From: Candidatus Woesearchaeota archaeon
GTDB taxonomy: Archaea; Nanobdellota; Nanobdellia; SCGC-AAA011-G17; PNOQ01
DNA length: 25,256 nt
Direction: 5' to 3'
Assembly (NCBI GenBank): GCA_043812195.1
Contig: JBDRML010000038.1
Span: 1 to 25,256, forward strand
The position numbers were made by a program, and so were the translations under genes. Shown in pieces: positions 5,272-12,864 of the stretch. Each line of letters starts with the position of its first letter. Positions within the stretch are counted from its first letter, which is position 1. Under the pieces are notes generated by a model, which saw nothing but the letters and a program-made list of their open reading frames with translations, did not search any database and was not told where the DNA came from.

Positions 5272-6804
5272 TTAATAATGTTGATAGGGCTTAGTTTTTT
5301 TTGATACTTGATCACATGGAATAATTGTAGCACCTTGCCAGTTTCCTCCACCCTGGATAGGAGTAGATTTAAACTCTCCAACAACAGTACCACCATTTAC
5401 AAAAATATTGTATCCATCGTTATAACAAACAGTACCACTTCCTTCAAGCATACTAGATTCTCCTTGTCCCAAATCAGAACCAACATAAATTCCATTTCCA
5501 TTTCCATTACTACTAAGAGAATAAGATACTCCTCCTGCAACAGAATTATCAGTTAAAGAGACTCCATAATCATCATTACCAGTTGTCTCAACACCCCAAA
5601 CAAAAGAGTTATCAAAGGCACTCACTCCCGATGCACCGTTGTTTCTTGTTTTTAGATTATAGCCATCGCTATTCCAAAACATAAGTGCACCATCATAACC
5701 ATTATTATATGTCTTAATATCAGAAAAATAACCATTATAAAAAACAAATCCATAATTTTCATTATCATATGAATCACACCCTTCAACATAACCGCCTTCA
5801 TAGACAAAAAACCCTATATAATCGTTTCCCCAAGATATACAATCTAAAGCATGGCCACCCTCTAATCCAAATCCGTAAAACTGATTGTCATAAGCAGTAC
5901 TAGTGTAAATTTCAACATTGTTACTAAAAACATAATATCCACAATAGTTTCCGTTTGAACGGCTTCCAATAATAACACTATTATCATGCACACTGAATCC
6001 ATCATAATAGTTATTTGAAGCAATACAATTATATACCTCTGCATCCCCAGAAAGGTAAAATCCGACGAAATTATCAATTGACTCACTATTTCTCAAAGTT
6101 CCAGAATCCATGACAAAAAATCCTTCCTCTTCATTATTTATAGCAAGATTATCACTATTCCCTTCATTGGGAGAATGTATACTAAAACCATAATAGCCCG
6201 AGTCTGCAACAGACGAACTCACTTTTCCATTATCGTAAACAACAAATCCATATAACTTTCCATAAACTCTACAGTTCTTAGCATGATGATTATCATATAC
6301 ATATATTCCATAACCATCTTCTCCAGCACTTGTCTTAGGATAAATCGTATAATCATTACAAGTAAAGTAACCATTATCATCCCCACCTTGCAAAACAATT
6401 GTATAATCAAACTCAACATTCTCAGTTATTTCATAACACCCGCTATCAAAATTTAAATATAAATCGCCATAAAGACTATCAAGAAATCCTTGTGTAATGA
6501 CAGCACAATCTTTTCCACCACCTGGCTCACCTAAAATTGCAGCAGGATTTCCTGATAACTCAAAAGAAGGTCTTTGTCTTTCAATATCAATATCATTCTT
6601 GAGTCTTTCAGAAATTTTCTGGTCAACATTCTCTCTAAGTTCTTCCAATCTCATCTCTTCATTATTATTAGAAACAACAGGATTAATTTTTCCAAGTCTA
6701 GGAGCATTAATAATTTCAAATATTAAAACACTTCCCACAATTAAAACCACAATACCCAAAACAATAAATTTTTTATTAATACTTTTTGACTTTTTTTTGA
6801 CCAT
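5272..6804 (-). CDS. Right-handed parallel beta-helix (pectin lyase-like/NosD-like) surface protein
   Basis: N-terminal basic stretch plus TM anchor; ~21-aa repeats of type N.YGF.V.... (NYYDGFSVHDNS, NQFYGFGLEGG, NENYGFVFYNG). Confidence 0.8.
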   Translation of the reverse strand: MVKKKSKSINKKFIVLGIVVLIVGSVLIFEIINAPRLGKINPVVSNNNEEMRLEELRENVDQKISERLKNDIDIERQRPSFELSGNPAAILGEPGGGKDCAVITQGFLDSLYGDLYLNFDSGCYEITENVEFDYTIVLQGGDDNGYFTCNDYTIYPKTSAGEDGYGIYVYDNHHAKNCRVYGKLYGFVVYDNGKVSSSVADSGYYGFSIHSPNEGNSDNLAINNEEEGFFVMDSGTLRNSESIDNFVGFYLSGDAEVYNCIASNNYYDGFSVHDNSVIIGSRSNGNYCGYYVFSNNVEIYTSTAYDNQFYGFGLEGGHALDCISWGNDYIGFFVYEGGYVEGCDSYDNENYGFVFYNGYFSDIKTYNNGYDGALMFWNSDGYNLKTRNNGASGVSAFDNSFVWGVETTGNDDYGVSLTDNSVAGGVSYSLSSNGNGNGIYVGSDLGQGESSMLEGSGTVCYNDGYNIFVNGGTVVGEFKSTPIQGGGNWQGATIIPCDQVSKKTKPYQHY

Positions 6805-6859
6805 AAAATCACCTTTTGTTTTACCTATAATAATTATTCTTTATAAATTTAACTAATAA

Positions 6860-7129
6860 TTAATGTTTTAATCTAAAATCCTCAAATCTTTTTTCAATCT
6901 CAATAACTTCCACATTAACAGTTTTAACCATAGCTGTAGGATGCTTAGTCCTAATAATCCTAATAACATCATCTATATTTTCTCTACTGCCATCAAAAAC
7001 TGCCTCAACACCACCATTTAAATTCCTAACATAACCCTTTAGTCCTAACTTAATCGCATTATCATAAACAAAGTATCTAAACCCAACACCCTGTACTTTT
7101 CCCATGATTAAAGCCTTGATTTGGACCAT
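6860..7129 (-). CDS. acyP: Acylphosphatase
   Basis: GKVQGVGFR and GYVRN signature motifs, 89 aa. Confidence 0.95.
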   Translation of the reverse strand: MVQIKALIMGKVQGVGFRYFVYDNAIKLGLKGYVRNLNGGVEAVFDGSRENIDDVIRIIRTKHPTAMVKTVNVEVIEIEKRFEDFRLKH

Positions 7130-7186
7130 AAATATGTATAAACATACTAATATTTAAATTATTAGAAAGTCCCAATTTATAGAAAA

Positions 7187-7360
7187 ATGGATAAAAAAAT
7201 AAGATTTTGTGATTATAGTTGTCCGTATATTAAATTTAATGAAAAACCAGCACCATGTCGCACTTTTGATGTAATTTATTGTACAAAATATAAAGTAGAA
7301 AGAGACAAAGGAGCAATATGTTTAGATCATGTAAGAAATAGGTTAGAAGATAAAGTATAA
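7187..7360 (+). CDS. Small Cys-rich hypothetical protein (57 aa), possible metal-binding
   Basis: Absent from ORF track. MDKKIRFCDYSCPYIKFNEKPAPCRTFDVIYCTKYKVERDKGAICLDHVRNRLEDKV*; divergent from acyP with TTTAAA box upstream. Confidence 0.7.
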   Translation: MDKKIRFCDYSCPYIKFNEKPAPCRTFDVIYCTKYKVERDKGAICLDHVRNRLEDKV

Positions 7361-7371
7361 AGCCTCAGGAG
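7359..7371 (-). repeat. Copy A of tRNA-Thr(TGT) 3' end (att-like), distal island boundary
   Basis: AAAGCCTCAGGAG identical (13 bp) to 10293-10305. Confidence 0.8.
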
Positions 7372-7509
7372 AGTCTTCAACATAGAAGTTCAAGTTCTAA
7401 GGGTAAAAAAGCGTTAGAGTTTATAAAGACTACTATTTTATTAGAATTCTCCCAATGTTTGATTATGTATCACACTTAAAGAGCAATCTATTAATTATTT
7501 TATCTGCCA

Positions 7510-7989
7510 TTATCTTTTCCTCTTTCCTGTTAATCTATGGAGCTCCCAAGAAATTAATCCTCCAATAACAACAATTGCTATTATTAGTATTATAAGATAT
7601 ATTTTTATCTGGGCCATCTCAGAACTTTTAACATTAAAATTCGCACTAACTTCTTCTTTTTCATTTACTATTACTCCTATTGTATATATTCCTGCAGGAG
7701 TTTCTTCAGGAACTTTAATTGAGGATAAAAAAGAGGCTTGAGTTTCAACAGCTTTTAACTCTCTTCTAGAATTAAGTATTATACTTCCTTTTTTAAGTTG
7801 ATAATCTAATTGAATGTCATGTCTTCCAGCTTTTTCAATGTTTTTAATTGCGATTTGAAATTGTAGTGTTTCTCCTGCTTGTATTTCTTGATATTTATCT
7901 GGGATTGTCACAGAGAGTTCAAATGCAGAGATAAGTTGTGAAATTAAAAGAATTACAATGAAGACAGAAAATATAATTTTTCTCTTCAT
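7510..7989 (-). CDS. Small membrane-anchored protein with Ig-like domain
   Basis: Signal peptide, beta-rich domain (IKVPEETPAGIYTIGV), C-terminal TM; GGAG SD upstream. Confidence 0.8.
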   Translation of the reverse strand: MKRKIIFSVFIVILLISQLISAFELSVTIPDKYQEIQAGETLQFQIAIKNIEKAGRHDIQLDYQLKKGSIILNSRRELKAVETQASFLSSIKVPEETPAGIYTIGVIVNEKEEVSANFNVKSSEMAQIKIYLIILIIAIVVIGGLISWELHRLTGKRKR

Positions 7990-8197
7990 TTTTTACTCCT
8001 TTCCCCAGAATTTTTACTTAAAACTCTGAGTTTTTTAGAAATTAAAATAAAGAAAATAACAAAAGATAATCCTACGATAAACATTGTAGAAAGAACAATC
8101 AATAAAAACTCACTCTCTAACTTATCTGAGGGGGAAAACACCTCTTCTTTTGATTTAATACTTACTAAGACCCAAAAATTATTTTCCTCTTTATCAT
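7986..8197 (-). pseudogene. Frameshifted/internally deleted membrane-protein gene
   Basis: ATG at 8197 after GAGG reads MIKRKIIFGS*; one extra T in the T5 run gives MIKRKIIFWVLVSIKSKEEVFSPSDKLESEFLLIVLSTMFIVGLSFVIFFILISKKLRVLSKNSGERSKK*, whose stop overlaps the next ATG (ATGA). Confidence 0.55.
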
Positions 8198-8308
8198 TAT
8201 TAACCTCAAGATAAAATTTATATTGATAATATTTAAATCTTTTTAATTGTTGCCTGCTGATTACAAATCATTTAAAGAATATTATGGAAAGTAGACCAAA
8301 AAATAGAT

Positions 8309-8346
8309 TTACCCTTTAATACATCGCTTATATAAATAAAGGGTAA
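8309..8346. repeat. 38-bp palindromic site left of fic
   Basis: TTACCCTTTA-N18-TAAAGGGTAA, perfect 10-bp arms, immediately upstream of TTTATAAA TATA box (8349-8356). Confidence 0.85.
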
Positions 8347-8377
8347 AGTTTATAAATAAGTAAAACATCTAAATAAT

Positions 8378-9385
8378 ATGGCATACATTTACAAAAAAAC
8401 TATTAATAATAAATCATATTATTACTTAAGAATCTCAAAAACCATTAAAGATAAAACTATCGTAAAAGATATAGCTTATTTAGGCAATGATCCAAAACAA
8501 ATCGAACCAAAACTAGAAAAGTTGTCATCTATTTATAAAAATGAAATAAAAAAATCATATAAAAATATAAATAAATTTATACAAGGAGAATATTATCTTA
8601 AAAAAATTAAAGGAAAAAAATTAAAGAAAGACCCTTATTTTGATAAAGAAATTTTAGAACAAATAGAAGCCATAAAATTACATTATAACAATCATTTTCT
8701 AAAACAAAACCAAATAACAATAAAAGAAGTATATAAACAATTTTTAATAGATTTTGCCTATAACACAACCTCTCTTGAAGGAAATACGATAACGTTACAA
8801 GAAGTCAATAAATTGTTAAGTGAAAATCTTACTCCAAAAAATAGAACGTTAAGAGAGATCTACGACTTAAAAAACACAGAAAAAGTTTTTTTTAATTTGT
8901 TAGACAAAAGAAATGCAATAAATCATGAGCTAATTAAAGAGATTCACAAAAATTTAATAGAAAACATTGATAACAGAACAGATTATAGAACTTTTGATTT
9001 GCATGTCTTTAAATCAAAATTTAAATCTTCTCCATTTCAATATATTAAAACAGACATAGATTTATTGTTAAAACTATACAAAAAATACGAGAAAAGATTA
9101 CACCCATTAGTTCTAGCAGCTATATTTCATCATAAATTTGAAGAGATACATCCTTTCGCCGATGGTAACGGTAGAACTGGAAGGATATTGATGAATTACA
9201 TTCTAATTAAAAATAGTTATCCCCCAATAATAATTAAAAAAATTAAAAGAGGAAAATATTTGGATTCACTAGGAAAAGCAGATAAATCAGGATTGGGCAA
9301 AATAGATTCTAATTCTTACAAAGAACTAGTTTCATACTTAAGTTCTGAAATGTTAGATAGCTACTGGAATTTATTCAACATATAA
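8378..9385 (+). CDS. fic: Fic-family protein (class II, AMP transferase) with N-terminal extension
   Basis: Catalytic motif HPFADGNGRTGR; inhibitory motif TTSLEGN upstream of the core. Confidence 0.93.
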   Translation: MAYIYKKTINNKSYYYLRISKTIKDKTIVKDIAYLGNDPKQIEPKLEKLSSIYKNEIKKSYKNINKFIQGEYYLKKIKGKKLKKDPYFDKEILEQIEAIKLHYNNHFLKQNQITIKEVYKQFLIDFAYNTTSLEGNTITLQEVNKLLSENLTPKNRTLREIYDLKNTEKVFFNLLDKRNAINHELIKEIHKNLIENIDNRTDYRTFDLHVFKSKFKSSPFQYIKTDIDLLLKLYKKYEKRLHPLVLAAIFHHKFEEIHPFADGNGRTGRILMNYILIKNSYPPIIIKKIKRGKYLDSLGKADKSGLGKIDSNSYKELVSYLSSEMLDSYWNLFNI

Positions 9386-9423
9386 TTACCCCTTAGATTT
9401 ATTTTATCAAGATTAAAGGGTAA
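9386..9423. repeat. 38-bp palindromic site right of fic
   Basis: TTACCCCTTA-N18-TAAAGGGTAA beginning at the base after the fic stop codon. Confidence 0.85.
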
Positions 9424-9467
9424 GCCTCAGGAGGGAGTTATCTCAAAGATATTATAGTGGAGGCTTA
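9421..9467 (-). repeat. Copy B of tRNA-Thr 3' end within a hairpin-capable site
   Basis: AAGCCTCAGGAGGGA (9422-9436) identical to 10294-10308; TAAGCCTC...GAGGCTTA 8-bp inverted repeat. Confidence 0.85.
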
Positions 9468-9516
9468 ATTAAAATTTATTTTGGTTAGAAAAAATAAAAG
9501 GATAAAATAAATTTAT

Positions 9517-9831
9517 TCAAAAATTCCAATAACCTTTTTGTCTAAGTTTTTCCATTTGTTCATCACTTAAAGGAACTCTTCCTCGGTATGCTGCTACGAC
9601 TTCATCGTTCTGATAAATTACGTCTCCTGAATCCCTTACCCTTATTTCTTCAATTCCACTAAAACTACCAACAAATGGTTCACTTGCAATATTTTTTAAA
9701 TTAATATATTTTTCAGGTTCAAAAGAATCAACCAAACCCTTTTCAGTGTATCTCTCTAAAACACCGCCTTTTTTTCTAGTAACGTCTACTTCAACTTCAA
9801 CGCCCAAAATATCTTTCGCATTTTTTGCCAT
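9517..9831 (-). CDS. Hypothetical protein (104 aa), cassette cargo
   Basis: ORF with GGGGG SD, BRE-TATA (GAAAGATTTATAAA) upstream and T-rich tract downstream. Confidence 0.8.
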   Translation of the reverse strand: MAKNAKDILGVEVEVDVTRKKGGVLERYTEKGLVDSFEPEKYINLKNIASEPFVGSFSGIEEIRVRDSGDVIYQNDEVVAAYRGRVPLSDEQMEKLRQKGYWNF

Positions 9832-9926
9832 TTTTCCCCCTTTAATACATAAATATGATACATTTATAGAGCATCTTTCCTTTATAAATCTTTCTATTCG
9901 TAACTACTTATAAGAAGTAAAAAATC

Positions 9927-9967
9927 AGCCTCGGGAGGAACTTATCAATTAATGGACATATGGGGCT
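9927..9967 (-). repeat. Copy C of tRNA-Thr 3' end within a related hairpin-capable site
   Basis: AGCCTCGGGAGG 11/12 to tRNA end; first 20 nt 17/20 identical to copy B including non-tRNA TTATC; ends in GGGGCT. Confidence 0.75.
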
Positions 9968-10013
9968 ATAGAAATGGGTGTGGGATTGACAAAAAAAGAA
10001 AAGAATTAATTAT

Positions 10014-10235
10014 TTAAAGTTTACGTTCGAGAGGGGAAATACGAACTTCATGAAATACAGATCTTTTATCAGCATTGATTATTAATCTATGTCTAACTTC
10101 GCTAACACGAAAACCTTGCAGTTCTTTGTCTTGTTGATCTACTTCATAAATATCTCCCTTTCTCGGGAGAACATCATCTTGAACATTTAAGATTATTCTT
10201 CCATTATTTGTATAAATCAAATCATATTCTATCAT
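10014..10235 (-). CDS. Hypothetical protein (~73 aa), cassette cargo
   Basis: ORF; ATG at 10235 preferred over TTG at 10247 because it follows a GGAGG SD; T-rich tract downstream. Confidence 0.75.
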   Translation of the reverse strand: MIEYDLIYTNNGRIILNVQDDVLPRKGDIYEVDQQDKELQGFRVSEVRHRLIINADKRSVFHEVRISPLERKL

Positions 10236-10294
10236 TTTATCCTCCAACCACCCAAATTAAGTATATACCAAAAACTTAAAAAGTTTACTAAAAA

Positions 10295-10379
10295 AGCCTC
10301 AGGAGGGATTCGAACCCCCGACCTGCTGATATCTTGAATTTTTTACAAGTCAGCTGCTCTACCGCTGAGCCACTGAGGC
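10295..10379 (-). tRNA. tRNA-Thr(TGT) with 13-nt intron at 37/38
   Basis: GCCTCAG/CTGAGGC acceptor stem, GCTGA/TCAGC anticodon stem, CT-TGT-A, intron AAAAATTCAAGAT with perfect CTTG/CAAG central helix, GGGGG-TTCGAAT-CCCTC T arm. Confidence 0.95.
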
Positions 10380-10420
10380 CTAACACAAAAATACAGTCAA
10401 AAACATACTTAAAAACTTTT

Positions 10421-10990
10421 CTACTTTCTATAAAACATTCTAATTTCAAATGATTGCAAAGGATAAATTTTACTTAAAGCACCCTTAAGAGACTTCTGTA
10501 AAGTATATCCAATGATAGAATCATACATCTCACTAACAGTTTTTTTCTTAAATTCACCTTCAACTAATTTTTTCAATTCTGCTTTCATACCCTTAGATAA
10601 TTGACCTTGAACTTTAGATTTAGTAACAAAAAATACTTTAAAAACACAATCAACACCATCTTTAGATTTTAATTTATAACTAATATCTAACTTACTTTTA
10701 CCCTTTCTTACCAATCTTTTTAAATAAGAACTTAAAACATAATAACCAATAGGTTCAGCTATTGCCTTGCCTTCTACAACTTTCTTTACTTCAAAAACCA
10801 ATCTAACATTAGGATTTCTACTCTTAGATACAATCATCATATCAACATTCAACCTTTTACCAATCAAATTACTTTCTTCAGAAACATAACTCTCTCCAAC
10901 TTGAGAGCCCCCAAACTCTTTAGATACATAAATTTCATACCATTTCTTTTTCTTCTTAGTTAATTGAACTCTTTTCCTTTGACTAGCCAT
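10421..10990 (-). CDS. rps3ae: 30S ribosomal protein S3Ae (eS1)
   Basis: KKKWYEIY...FG...VGE, LKRLVRKGKSKLD, SKIYPL...EIR motifs; operon context. Confidence 0.92.
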   Translation of the reverse strand: MASQRKRVQLTKKKKKWYEIYVSKEFGGSQVGESYVSEESNLIGKRLNVDMMIVSKSRNPNVRLVFEVKKVVEGKAIAEPIGYYVLSSYLKRLVRKGKSKLDISYKLKSKDGVDCVFKVFFVTKSKVQGQLSKGMKAELKKLVEGEFKKKTVSEMYDSIIGYTLQKSLKGALSKIYPLQSFEIRMFYRK

Positions 10991-11026
10991 ATCAGTTTTG
11001 AGAACTAGGTTTATTTTTAAAGCTTT

Positions 11027-12412
11027 CTATCTTGTAATTTTATCTAAAATCTTCTTAGCACTCTCAACAAATCTATTTAATTCTTCCTGTGGCAAAATTG
11101 CACCAGCAGCAAATGCATGTCCACCAACTTCACTAGGAATTCCTTTAGCAATCTTATCCAATACAGATTTTAAATCCAAACCATTATTATACCCACTAGC
11201 TCTAATGCTAATTTTTATTGTATCATCTATACAATTGGCAATTGACAATAAAATAGTCCCATCTTTATACAAATTAGATCTAGAAATAATAGAAGCTATA
11301 GTTCCAATTAAAGTATCTCTAATATTCTCCTCAGAATTAATAATCACATAACCATCTTTTTCATAAATAAGTTCACTCTCTCTATTAGCATAAAACCAAT
11401 TCAATGAATTTATTATCTCTCTCTTATAATCACTCAACAAATTTAAGGCCAACTCTTTACTTTTTTCATCTCCTAAACAAACTCCAATACCCAAACTAGG
11501 TTTTCCCAATCTACCACAAGCATTCAACAAAGTAGAAAATTCTCTCAAATCCCTAGTTGAACTACCATCATCCTCCCCTTTTAATAGATAAATATCACCA
11601 ATCACATCCTGTTCAGGATTTTTCTCTGCTCCCATTCTTCTCAAAATTATAGCAGTAGTCAATCTCTTAATTTCTTCAGTAGTCAAATGTATTAATTTCT
11701 TAGGACCTTCAAAACCCTTTAAAGAAATCCCTATATCTCTCAAAAAACCAATAGATGCCCCTTCATCACCAGTAACTCCTGGAATAAAAGGATCAGTACT
11801 ATACTGTAATATTTTATGAATGGGTCTAGTCTGAGCACCAAACATTCTCAACCCTTTTTTAACATCAAGATTCTCTTTAGCATCTTCAAGTATTTCAGCA
11901 TTCAATCCCTTAAATCCATTAACAGCTTGTATATCTCCAATAGCACCAAGTAAAGCTAAATGTGCACTTTTAATATTTCTCTCATTTAAGAACTTAGAAA
12001 ATAAATAAGAAACTCCTGCACCAGATATTTCATTCTCATCCTTTTTATATACAAGAGGATTTATAAAATGAATATTATCATTAAGTTCCACATCAGCAAA
12101 TAAATGATGATCTAAAATAAAAACCTCTTTACCTTTTAATAAGTCATTAATACTTTTCAAACCACCAGAACCTAAATCACTAAAAATAACAGTTTTATAA
12201 TTCTCAGATGCAACCTCTTTAATAACATCTTCAGTCAAAGATCTAACTATACTTAAATTAAAAGGTCTATCCTCATTATACATTGCTCTAGTTAAAATAG
12301 CAGCAGAACTCAATCCATCACAATCGAGATGAGAGATAATTCTAACAGGACCTTCAGTTCCCTTAAAATATTCAACCCCCTTCTTTATAGCCGAGATGAA
12401 ATCCATTATCAT
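11027..12412 (-). CDS. DHH-family phosphoesterase, archaeal RecJ/Cdc45-like (GAN-type) nuclease
   Basis: SHLDCDG, SDLGS, LDHH, EISGAG, GAIGD and GGHAFAAG (DHHA1) motifs; lies between rps15 and rps3ae. Confidence 0.9.
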   Translation of the reverse strand: MIMDFISAIKKGVEYFKGTEGPVRIISHLDCDGLSSAAILTRAMYNEDRPFNLSIVRSLTEDVIKEVASENYKTVIFSDLGSGGLKSINDLLKGKEVFILDHHLFADVELNDNIHFINPLVYKKDENEISGAGVSYLFSKFLNERNIKSAHLALLGAIGDIQAVNGFKGLNAEILEDAKENLDVKKGLRMFGAQTRPIHKILQYSTDPFIPGVTGDEGASIGFLRDIGISLKGFEGPKKLIHLTTEEIKRLTTAIILRRMGAEKNPEQDVIGDIYLLKGEDDGSSTRDLREFSTLLNACGRLGKPSLGIGVCLGDEKSKELALNLLSDYKREIINSLNWFYANRESELIYEKDGYVIINSEENIRDTLIGTIASIISRSNLYKDGTILLSIANCIDDTIKISIRASGYNNGLDLKSVLDKIAKGIPSEVGGHAFAAGAILPQEELNRFVESAKKILDKITR

Positions 12413-12864
12413 CCAGTTAATAATTTAGCTTTTTCAGCATCATACTTCCAATCTTTAGAAAGCTTTCCATTAGATTTATAATATTTAACAAGCCTATTAA
12501 TTTTGCTTTCAGTTAACATCAACCCTCTTTTAGCAACAACATCTTTATGATTATCATTCAAATGTTTATCCACTTGAATTTGTCTTTTGATTAAATTTGA
12601 TAAATCTTCAGGCAATTCATGCTCAATTTTATTCTTCTCTAACATTTTAGTTATTCTTTCATTTGTTACAATCTTAACATCAGGAATACCATAAGAATCT
12701 CTCAATATTAAACCTATTTCACTAGCCCTCTTTCCAGCCTTGCCTAATTTTACTATTAAGCTCTCTATCTCCTTAACACCATATCTAACCCAGGCTTTCT
12801 TCTTAACCATTTCATATCTTTCACTTCCACTTTTTCCTTTCTTTCTTGAATGCATTCGTGCCAT
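12409..12864 (-). CDS. rps15: 30S ribosomal protein S15 (uS15)
   Basis: MARMHSRKKGKSGS, IGLILRDSYGIPDVK, LPEDL, ESKINRLVKYYK. Confidence 0.97.
   Translation of the reverse strand: MARMHSRKKGKSGSERYEMVKKKAWVRYGVKEIESLIVKLGKAGKRASEIGLILRDSYGIPDVKIVTNERITKMLEKNKIEHELPEDLSNLIKRQIQVDKHLNDNHKDVVAKRGLMLTESKINRLVKYYKSNGKLSKDWKYDAEKAKLLTG

Follow-up and report, generated by a model that had tools for sequence, protein, structure and literature searches.

Modules B and C, two short repeat-bearing sites located downstream of the tRNA-Thr(UGU) gene of a DPANN-type archaeon, are probably att-like junctions (of the attR type, that is, an element arm followed by a core) of small tRNA-anchored cassettes that lack an integrase. 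The DNA analyzed here (the window, 25 256 nucleotides) is a contig of a groundwater assembly (contig C38 of G000), and the host genome is small (938 kb, 0.94 Mb), has a GC content of ∼30%, and is ∼90% complete in 45 contigs. In the initial annotation, modules B and C had been described as cassette boundary sites that share an extension beyond a tRNA match, and the letters and positions given for both of them were found to be exact when the window was re-read.

Organization of the tRNA-Thr locus

The features of the locus are listed in Table 1. Downstream of tRNA-Thr (leftward in the window), the order is ORF77, module C, ORF104, module B, the Fic-domain gene, two small membrane-type ORFs, copy D, a 57-aa ORF and acylphosphatase. 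An intact tRNA-Thr gene was identified beside the repeat by both ARAGORN and Rfam, and the two inserts behind it are 368 and 504 bp in size; the Fic gene occupies the cassette that extends from module B to position 8244. An archaeal SRP RNA was also detected in the window using Rfam.

Table 1 Features of the tRNA-Thr locus (window coordinates) and tRNA-tail copies on other contigs of the host genome
Feature	Position	Strand	Evidence or remarks
tRNA-Thr(UGU), 13-nt intron	10295-10380	minus	ARAGORN; Rfam 62.6 bits; anticodon read by eye
Copy A, proximal repeat AAGCCTCAGGAGGGA	10294-10308	plus-strand letters	tRNA-Thr last 15 nt plus 1
ORF77, proximal-cassette cargo	10014-10247	minus	73 aa from ATG
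Module C	9927-9967	minus	41 nt
ORF104, distal-cassette cargo	9517-9831	minus	
Module B	9423-9465	minus	43 nt
Indel segment	9437-10308 (equivalently 9422-10293)		872 bp; holds ORF104, module C and ORF77; absent in related strains
Fic-domain gene	8378-9385	plus	Pfam PF02661, E 2.5e-20
Copy D, partial tRNA-Thr 3' end	7361-7374	minus	
tRNA-Glu(CUC) tail copies	contig C4: 8735, 9315, 9869		spacings 348, 580 and 554 nt; small ORFs in each interval
tRNA-Tyr tail	contig C29		one copy
tRNA-Ser(UGA) tail	contig C16		one copy; bounds an apparent RelE-type toxin-antitoxin pair (by eye)

Module B reads AGCCTCAGGAGGGAGTTATC...GAGGCT and module C reads AGCCTCGGGAGGAACTTATC...GGGGCT. The 14-mer AGCCTCRGGAGGRA is present in three exact copies, the third of which is the 3' end of tRNA-Thr(UGU), and in one further copy with two mismatches (at 7361); the chance expectation was 0.10, and four copies were found in none of 100 shuffles. 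The core of B (9422-9436) is a 15-nt exact copy of the tRNA-Thr 3' end and forms a direct repeat with 10294-10308, and the core of C (9927-9940) is degenerate, with two mismatches to tRNA-Thr. Copy D reads CTCTCCTGAGGCT on the tRNA-sense strand, differs from the tRNA-Thr 3' end by one mismatch in 13 positions and has no fold-back arm. The reported similarity beyond the tRNA match was confirmed: TTATC occurs at the same offset in both modules (9438-9442 in B and 9942-9946 in C), for which the chance was estimated at ∼0.01. The two ends of the insert, inspected by eye, are not inverted repeats.

A perfect 12-bp inverted repeat (TTACCCTTTAAT), located at 8309-8320 and 9411-9422, brackets the Fic gene together with its promoter. 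An 11-mer of this repeat occurs genome-wide only at these two positions, and the right copy abuts the tRNA-tail core of module B.

Filled and empty alleles in natural strains

Contigs of four groundwater runs (X1-X4) were compared with positions 6000-12500 of the window. In three of the four runs (X1, X3 and X4, from three studies), contigs join position 9421 directly to position 10294 and skip 872 bp. Fifteen letters fit both sides of this joint, which therefore lies inside the 15-nt repeat. The same arrangement was found in a JGI metagenome contig (L057) with 99.6% identity over 6.7 kb of conserved flank, in which S3Ae and tRNA-Thr are followed directly by the Fic cassette. This contig is collinear with 16990-10294 and then with 9436-8244 of the window, and the stretch covered by both alignments is precisely the 15-nt repeat. 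It should be noted that L057 and one of the runs possibly share a sample, which limits the independent observations to at most four, perhaps three.

Because the joint falls at the repeat in natural strains, module B and the tRNA end bound a real insertion or deletion of ORF104, module C and ORF77. The view of these sites as cassette boundaries at which DNA has been gained or lost, as the initial annotation had it, is thus supported by the joint in three of the four runs and in L057. The limits of the 872-bp indel also imply that the non-tRNA part of module B, including its arm, belongs to the variable segment. Module C is only a candidate boundary, since none of the contigs compared showed either cassette without the other. 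All of the joints listed were skips, with no circular form or back-joining joint among them (only contigs were used, which drop rare forms), and no contig spanning the filled junctions in independent runs was present among the pieces listed.

In run X2, contigs match 8619-9436 and 10352-12500 and then continue with 1860 and 990 nt, respectively, unlike the window; the breaks are located at the end of the B core and in the middle of the tRNA. These contigs may derive from a third allele in which this tRNA carries a larger insert.

L057 also lacks positions 7173-8243 of the window (1071 bp, containing the 57-aa ORF, copy D and the membrane ORFs) and has a 47-nt perfect palindrome there instead (L057 7875-7921; 21-bp stem and 5-nt loop). 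Full or single-arm palindromes of this type could be identified in the host genome at C4:39920, C4:42394, C16:61938, C16:31669/31796, C16:77997 and C41:31695, and one copy lies inside the tRNA-Ser cassette. The palindrome looks like a small mobile palindromic element.

Occurrence of tRNA-tail copies in the host genome

The 13-nt 3' core of each of the 27 tRNA genes was searched, with at most one mismatch, within 6 kb on both sides and on both strands. Seven tail copies were detected downstream on the same strand, and none was found upstream or on the opposite strand at either side. The hosts of these tails are tRNA-Thr (copies B and D; C was missed at this mismatch threshold), tRNA-Glu(CUC), tRNA-Tyr and tRNA-Ser(UGA), and the cassettes measure 350-580 bp. 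None of the four tail-bearing tRNAs was found beside a complete, integrase-carrying element.

On contig C4 (8237-9881), a tRNA-Gln(CUG)-tRNA-Glu(CUC) pair is followed by the three tRNA-Glu tails, which bound three small cassettes; the first of these tails is itself a tight palindrome (ATGCTC-GGCGG-GAGCAT). At C15:19036-19049, a tRNA-Thr-like tail (TCTCTCCTGAGGCT) that resembles copy D stands alone, without a neighbouring tRNA.

Recombinases

No recombinase gene could be identified by Pfam in or next to the cassettes. The genome contains four Xer-like tyrosine recombinase genes (PF00589; C36:7125-7919, C1:9418-10044, C15:3668-4930 and C45:52254-53453), all of them on other contigs and all below the curated cut-offs, and two of the four are located in what look like related elements. 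An integron integrase was not found: the four recombinases scored 42-168 bits against TIGR02249, for which the cut-off is 265, and the window contains neither IntI nor attI. One small serine recombinase is present in the genome, and no Cas1 was detected in it (∼90% complete).

On the basis of these results, we propose that each cassette carried an attachment module of ∼42 nt. The core of this module would be a copy of the last 14-15 nt of tRNA-Thr, which would restore the tRNA after insertion, and the rest would be made up of a spacer rich in AT followed by a distal arm with the sequence of the 5' acceptor-stem strand. Cassettes would enter or leave by recombination inside the 15-nt core, for which one of the genomic Xer-like tyrosine recombinases, acting in trans, is the most likely catalyst; a short-homology mechanism is less likely. 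Common descent of the element arms would then account for the extension that B and C share. The scheme is inferential as regards the enzyme, the sense of the event (insertion or excision) and any function of the fold-back arm. Several observations speak against the att reading or limit it. There is no recombinase in or next to the cassettes, and a 15-nt repeat could also allow deletion without any recombinase. Moreover, a simple attR reading does not explain a further module on contig C1 (see below), which has no tRNA partner.

Fold-back arms and a third module

Both modules had been described as ending in an arm complementary to their start, a claim that is firm for module B alone. In B, the distal arm GAGGCT (9460-9465) pairs with 9423-9428 and, when two flanking bases are included, forms a perfect 8-bp inverted repeat (TAAGCCTC/GAGGCTTA, 9421-9428/9460-9467) that was equalled by only 1 of 5000 shuffles; for comparison, AGCCTC with at most one mismatch lies 15-60 nt upstream of 14 of the 140 GAGGCT sites in the genome. 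In C, whose distal arm is GGGGCT (9962-9967), only four contiguous bases are complementary, which is at chance level (3717 of 5000 shuffles equal). The predicted RNA fold of B on the tRNA-sense strand has -11.7 kcal/mol (z -3.87), with the 8-bp outer stem and an inner 5-bp hairpin in the spacer. In C, the transcribed strand has C x A at pair 5 and a fold z-score of +0.82, and the opposite strand has G.T at this pair and a z-score of -0.89.

A third module of 41 nt was first found as a one-mismatch match on contig C1 of the same genome (C1:38609-38649; locus L004 1474-1514). It is identical to module C at 29 of the 41 positions (our own count on the alignment), and TTTCTAT just upstream is common to both. 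The C1 module has the arms AGCCCT/GGGGCT and a 7-bp stem on the tRNA-sense strand (fold z -1.70; 12 of 200 shuffles equal). It is flanked by a 249-aa Cys-rich secreted ORF and a 146-aa ORF, does not adjoin a tRNA, and no tRNA in the assembly ends in CTGGGGCT. In its left half, C is similar to the C1 module, and its final six nucleotides (GAGGCT) agree with tRNA-Thr. Module C might thus be a hybrid of a C1-type arm and a tRNA-Thr-type end, as would follow from a crossover inside the core.

The three modules allowed a first, small covariance check of homologous sites. The arm-to-arm length is 41-43 nt in all of them and 17 of the 18 stem cells pair across B, C and C1; at pair 5, B has T-A, C1 has C-G and C has C x A. 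The stem is thus preserved in the C1 module through the change from T-A to C-G; on the other hand, TTATC is absent from it, and the covariation among the three sequences was not significant, as 331 of 500 shuffles did as well. Covariation no better than that of shuffles is not evidence of selection for pairing. The suggestion in the initial annotation that these sites form a defined family of structured recombination sites is supported as far as a small family with a non-tRNA part (B, C and C1) is concerned, and an attC-like mechanism that uses a folded single strand is hypothetical.

It is well known that integron attC sites have conserved complementary ends and variable centres and recombine as folded single strands. 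By analogy, a recombinase could recognize the acceptor-like stem of modules that fold from single-stranded DNA, as in integron attC or the attP of CTX phage. The outer stem and inner hairpin of B, the stem of C1, the change from T-A to C-G at pair 5, the constant arm-to-arm length and the integron-sized cassettes (350-580 bp) would all suit this explanation, which we nevertheless consider unlikely. Only three members are known and their covariation does not exceed that of shuffles, the stem of C is broken on the transcribed strand, and the fold-back arm is absent from the five other tRNA-tail copies in the genome. Moreover, no recombinase reached the integron integrase cut-off, no GTTRRRY-type core could be seen by eye, ORF104 is preceded by a promoter of its own and the Fic gene runs in the opposite direction. 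The complementarity itself could be explained by copying of both arms from one tRNA gene: the 5' arm region of C (TATAGCCCCAT on the tRNA-sense strand) is identical to the 5' end of the contig C4 tRNA-Gln(CUG) gene from -4 to +7, four flank bases included (0 of 2000 shuffles), and TTAAGCCTC in B resembles TTAGGCCTC at the 5' end of tRNA-Thr.

The preservation of both tRNA-gene ends with their flanks in B and C, and the lack of an integrase in the cassettes, would also be expected if no dedicated recombinase were involved, with the modules being internally deleted relics of tRNA genes and the cassettes being lost and regained by short-homology (Campbell-type) recombination at the 15-nt repeats. 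We regard this as an unlikely alternative. Fifteen nucleotides are very short for homologous recombination, and the strictly downstream, same-strand position of the tails at four tRNAs is the signature of site-specific integration. In addition, a duplication-prone locus might be expected to show extra tRNA-Thr tails, and none were found at the tRNA-Thr loci of 12 relatives (4-8 kb downstream).

Distribution in relatives and viruses

The gene order S3Ae-tRNA-Thr is kept in many relatives, and the region downstream of tRNA-Thr is variable. Homologues of the cassette genes were likewise absent from the 12 tRNA-Thr loci mentioned above. The extended pattern AGCCTCRGGAGGRANTTATC was absent from 40 relatives, from a set of 239 further genomes of the order and from viral contigs, and a covariance model searched in 149 of the 239 order genomes revealed no genuine site. 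Thus, the module was not found in the order genomes or viral contigs, and no donor element is known.

Several candidates were rejected. When one genome per GTDB species was searched, AGCCTCRGGAGGRANTTATC gave three matches, all of them unrelated and bacterial. The pattern AGTTCCTCCYGRGGCT gave 41 matches in viral contigs, which were unrelated, mostly in GC-rich contigs, and in no case accompanied by the module. The sole new match of the covariance model (G047, E 0.047) is located in a coding region and lacks the core.

Cassette genes, promoters and the question of an RNA role

Neither ORF104 nor ORF77 has a Pfam match. ORF104 is a near-orphan that matched only itself in one search and had two weak relatives among 1.8 billion representatives in another, and ORF77 is an orphan that matched only itself and has no named look-alike. 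A promoter for ORF104 that fits the genome consensus is located at ∼9879-9894, immediately after the core of C. This consensus (AGTAGTWACAAATA GAAAGATTTATAAAGG, window 9879-9908) occurs at 32 places in the genome with at most two mismatches, precedes many genes and is lineage-wide. The 36-nt stretch 9881-9916 was considered as a cassette-specific arm and rejected, as it corresponds to the generic promoter consensus; many high-depth contigs of other organisms match this stretch for the same reason.

Each stop codon is separated from the module that follows by oligo-T runs, which are typical archaeal termination signals (T4, T4 and T6 after ORF104; T4 and T7 after ORF77). Neither the Rfam tRNA models nor ARAGORN gave a match at B or C, whose folds lack a T-arm. 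Among the sequencing runs recorded as containing this DNA, none is an RNA run. The T runs, the separate promoter of ORF104 and the failure of tRNA models to detect B and C favour a role at the DNA level. The other possibility raised in the initial annotation, that the modules are tRNA-like processing signals of the cassette transcript, is accordingly very improbable, also in the form of processing or stabilizing elements at the 3' ends of cassette mRNAs that would be cut by RNase P or RNase Z: modules B, C and C1 each lie 30-51 nt downstream of an ORF in sense orientation, and the sense strand gives the better fold for B and C1, but T4-T7 runs separate the stop codons from B and C, and the DNA indel at the repeat would be left unexplained.

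Comparison with known integrative systems

Integration at tRNA genes is textbook knowledge. Casposons generate a 14-15 bp target duplication at tRNA 3' ends and have terminal inverted repeats and Cas1; the cassettes described here differ from them in that no Cas1 was detected in the ∼90% complete genome and the insert ends are not inverted repeats. Integron cassettes are mostly promoterless and co-oriented. Integrons have reportedly been described in archaea (Ghaly et al., 2022). The cassettes behind the tRNA genes resemble those of integrons in their size, in their orphan and toxin-type cargo and possibly in the conserved complementary ends that flank a variable centre in B and in C1. Unlike integrons, they come without IntI and attI, their conserved repeat is a tRNA tail rather than an R/L box pair, the stem has only 6-8 bp, and the cassettes have promoters and are not all co-oriented. 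It is conceivable, though improbable in our estimation, that tiny DPANN archaea possess a tRNA-anchored counterpart of the integron, in which integrase-less single-gene cassettes with their own promoters carry a ∼42-nt 'mini-tRNA' module (both acceptor strands) that is recognized as a folded strand by a chromosomal Xer-like recombinase and are shuffled behind several tRNA genes.

The preferred att reading is close to tRNA-directed integration systems. In Streptococcus, CIMEs (cis-mobilizable elements) are integrase-less units bounded by att sites. As in CIMEs and in the tycheposons of Prochlorococcus, older units are displaced outward by successive insertions at one tRNA, the joints carry partial tRNAs, integrase-less units lie between att sites, and strains differ by single units. 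In the tycheposon report, partial tRNAs separate tandem integrations in Prochlorococcus islands, and degenerate remnants are described as well (preprint 10.1101/2020.12.28.424599). The locus analyzed here differs in that the host is an archaeon of 0.94 Mb, each unit is one small ORF with a promoter of its own, and no complete integrase element was seen at the four tRNAs.

For the SNJ2 virus, a 14-bp core that matches the 3'-distal part of a tRNA-Met gene exactly has been described, together with conserved P arms (PMC5861418). The present sites share with SNJ2-type sites a core from the tRNA 3' end that is duplicated at the far end of the insert, a restored tRNA, a P-arm sequence common to related elements and an empty site in related strains. 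In contrast with SNJ2-type sites, the insert has no integrase or accessory genes, and at a distance of ∼30 nt from the core the arm contains a repeat of the 5' acceptor strand. Partial tRNA fragments also mark integration in archaea in the examples of another report, in which the inserts measure ∼9-23 kb compared with 368 and 504 bp here (PMC9897764).

No description of such a site was found in the literature collection searched, and supplementary tables might list comparable small elements. A term search in the available text of a review on archaeal tyrosine recombinases returned no mention of DPANN (PMC8371274). Two features are absent from the reports cited here: single-ORF units of 350-580 bp that lack a recombinase and are arrayed behind four tRNA genes, and an attachment module that copies both strands of the acceptor stem. 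If the units were mobile in trans, this would explain how accessory or defence-type genes (for example, Fic) are exchanged in genome-reduced symbionts without obvious mobile elements. The natural filled and empty alleles make the question directly testable.

A further tRNA arrangement was observed elsewhere in the window: a tRNA-Thr(GGU) gene (2723-2811) adjoins a second tRNA with a long insert (2823-2949; Rfam 46.9 bits), and both are intron-containing and on the minus strand.
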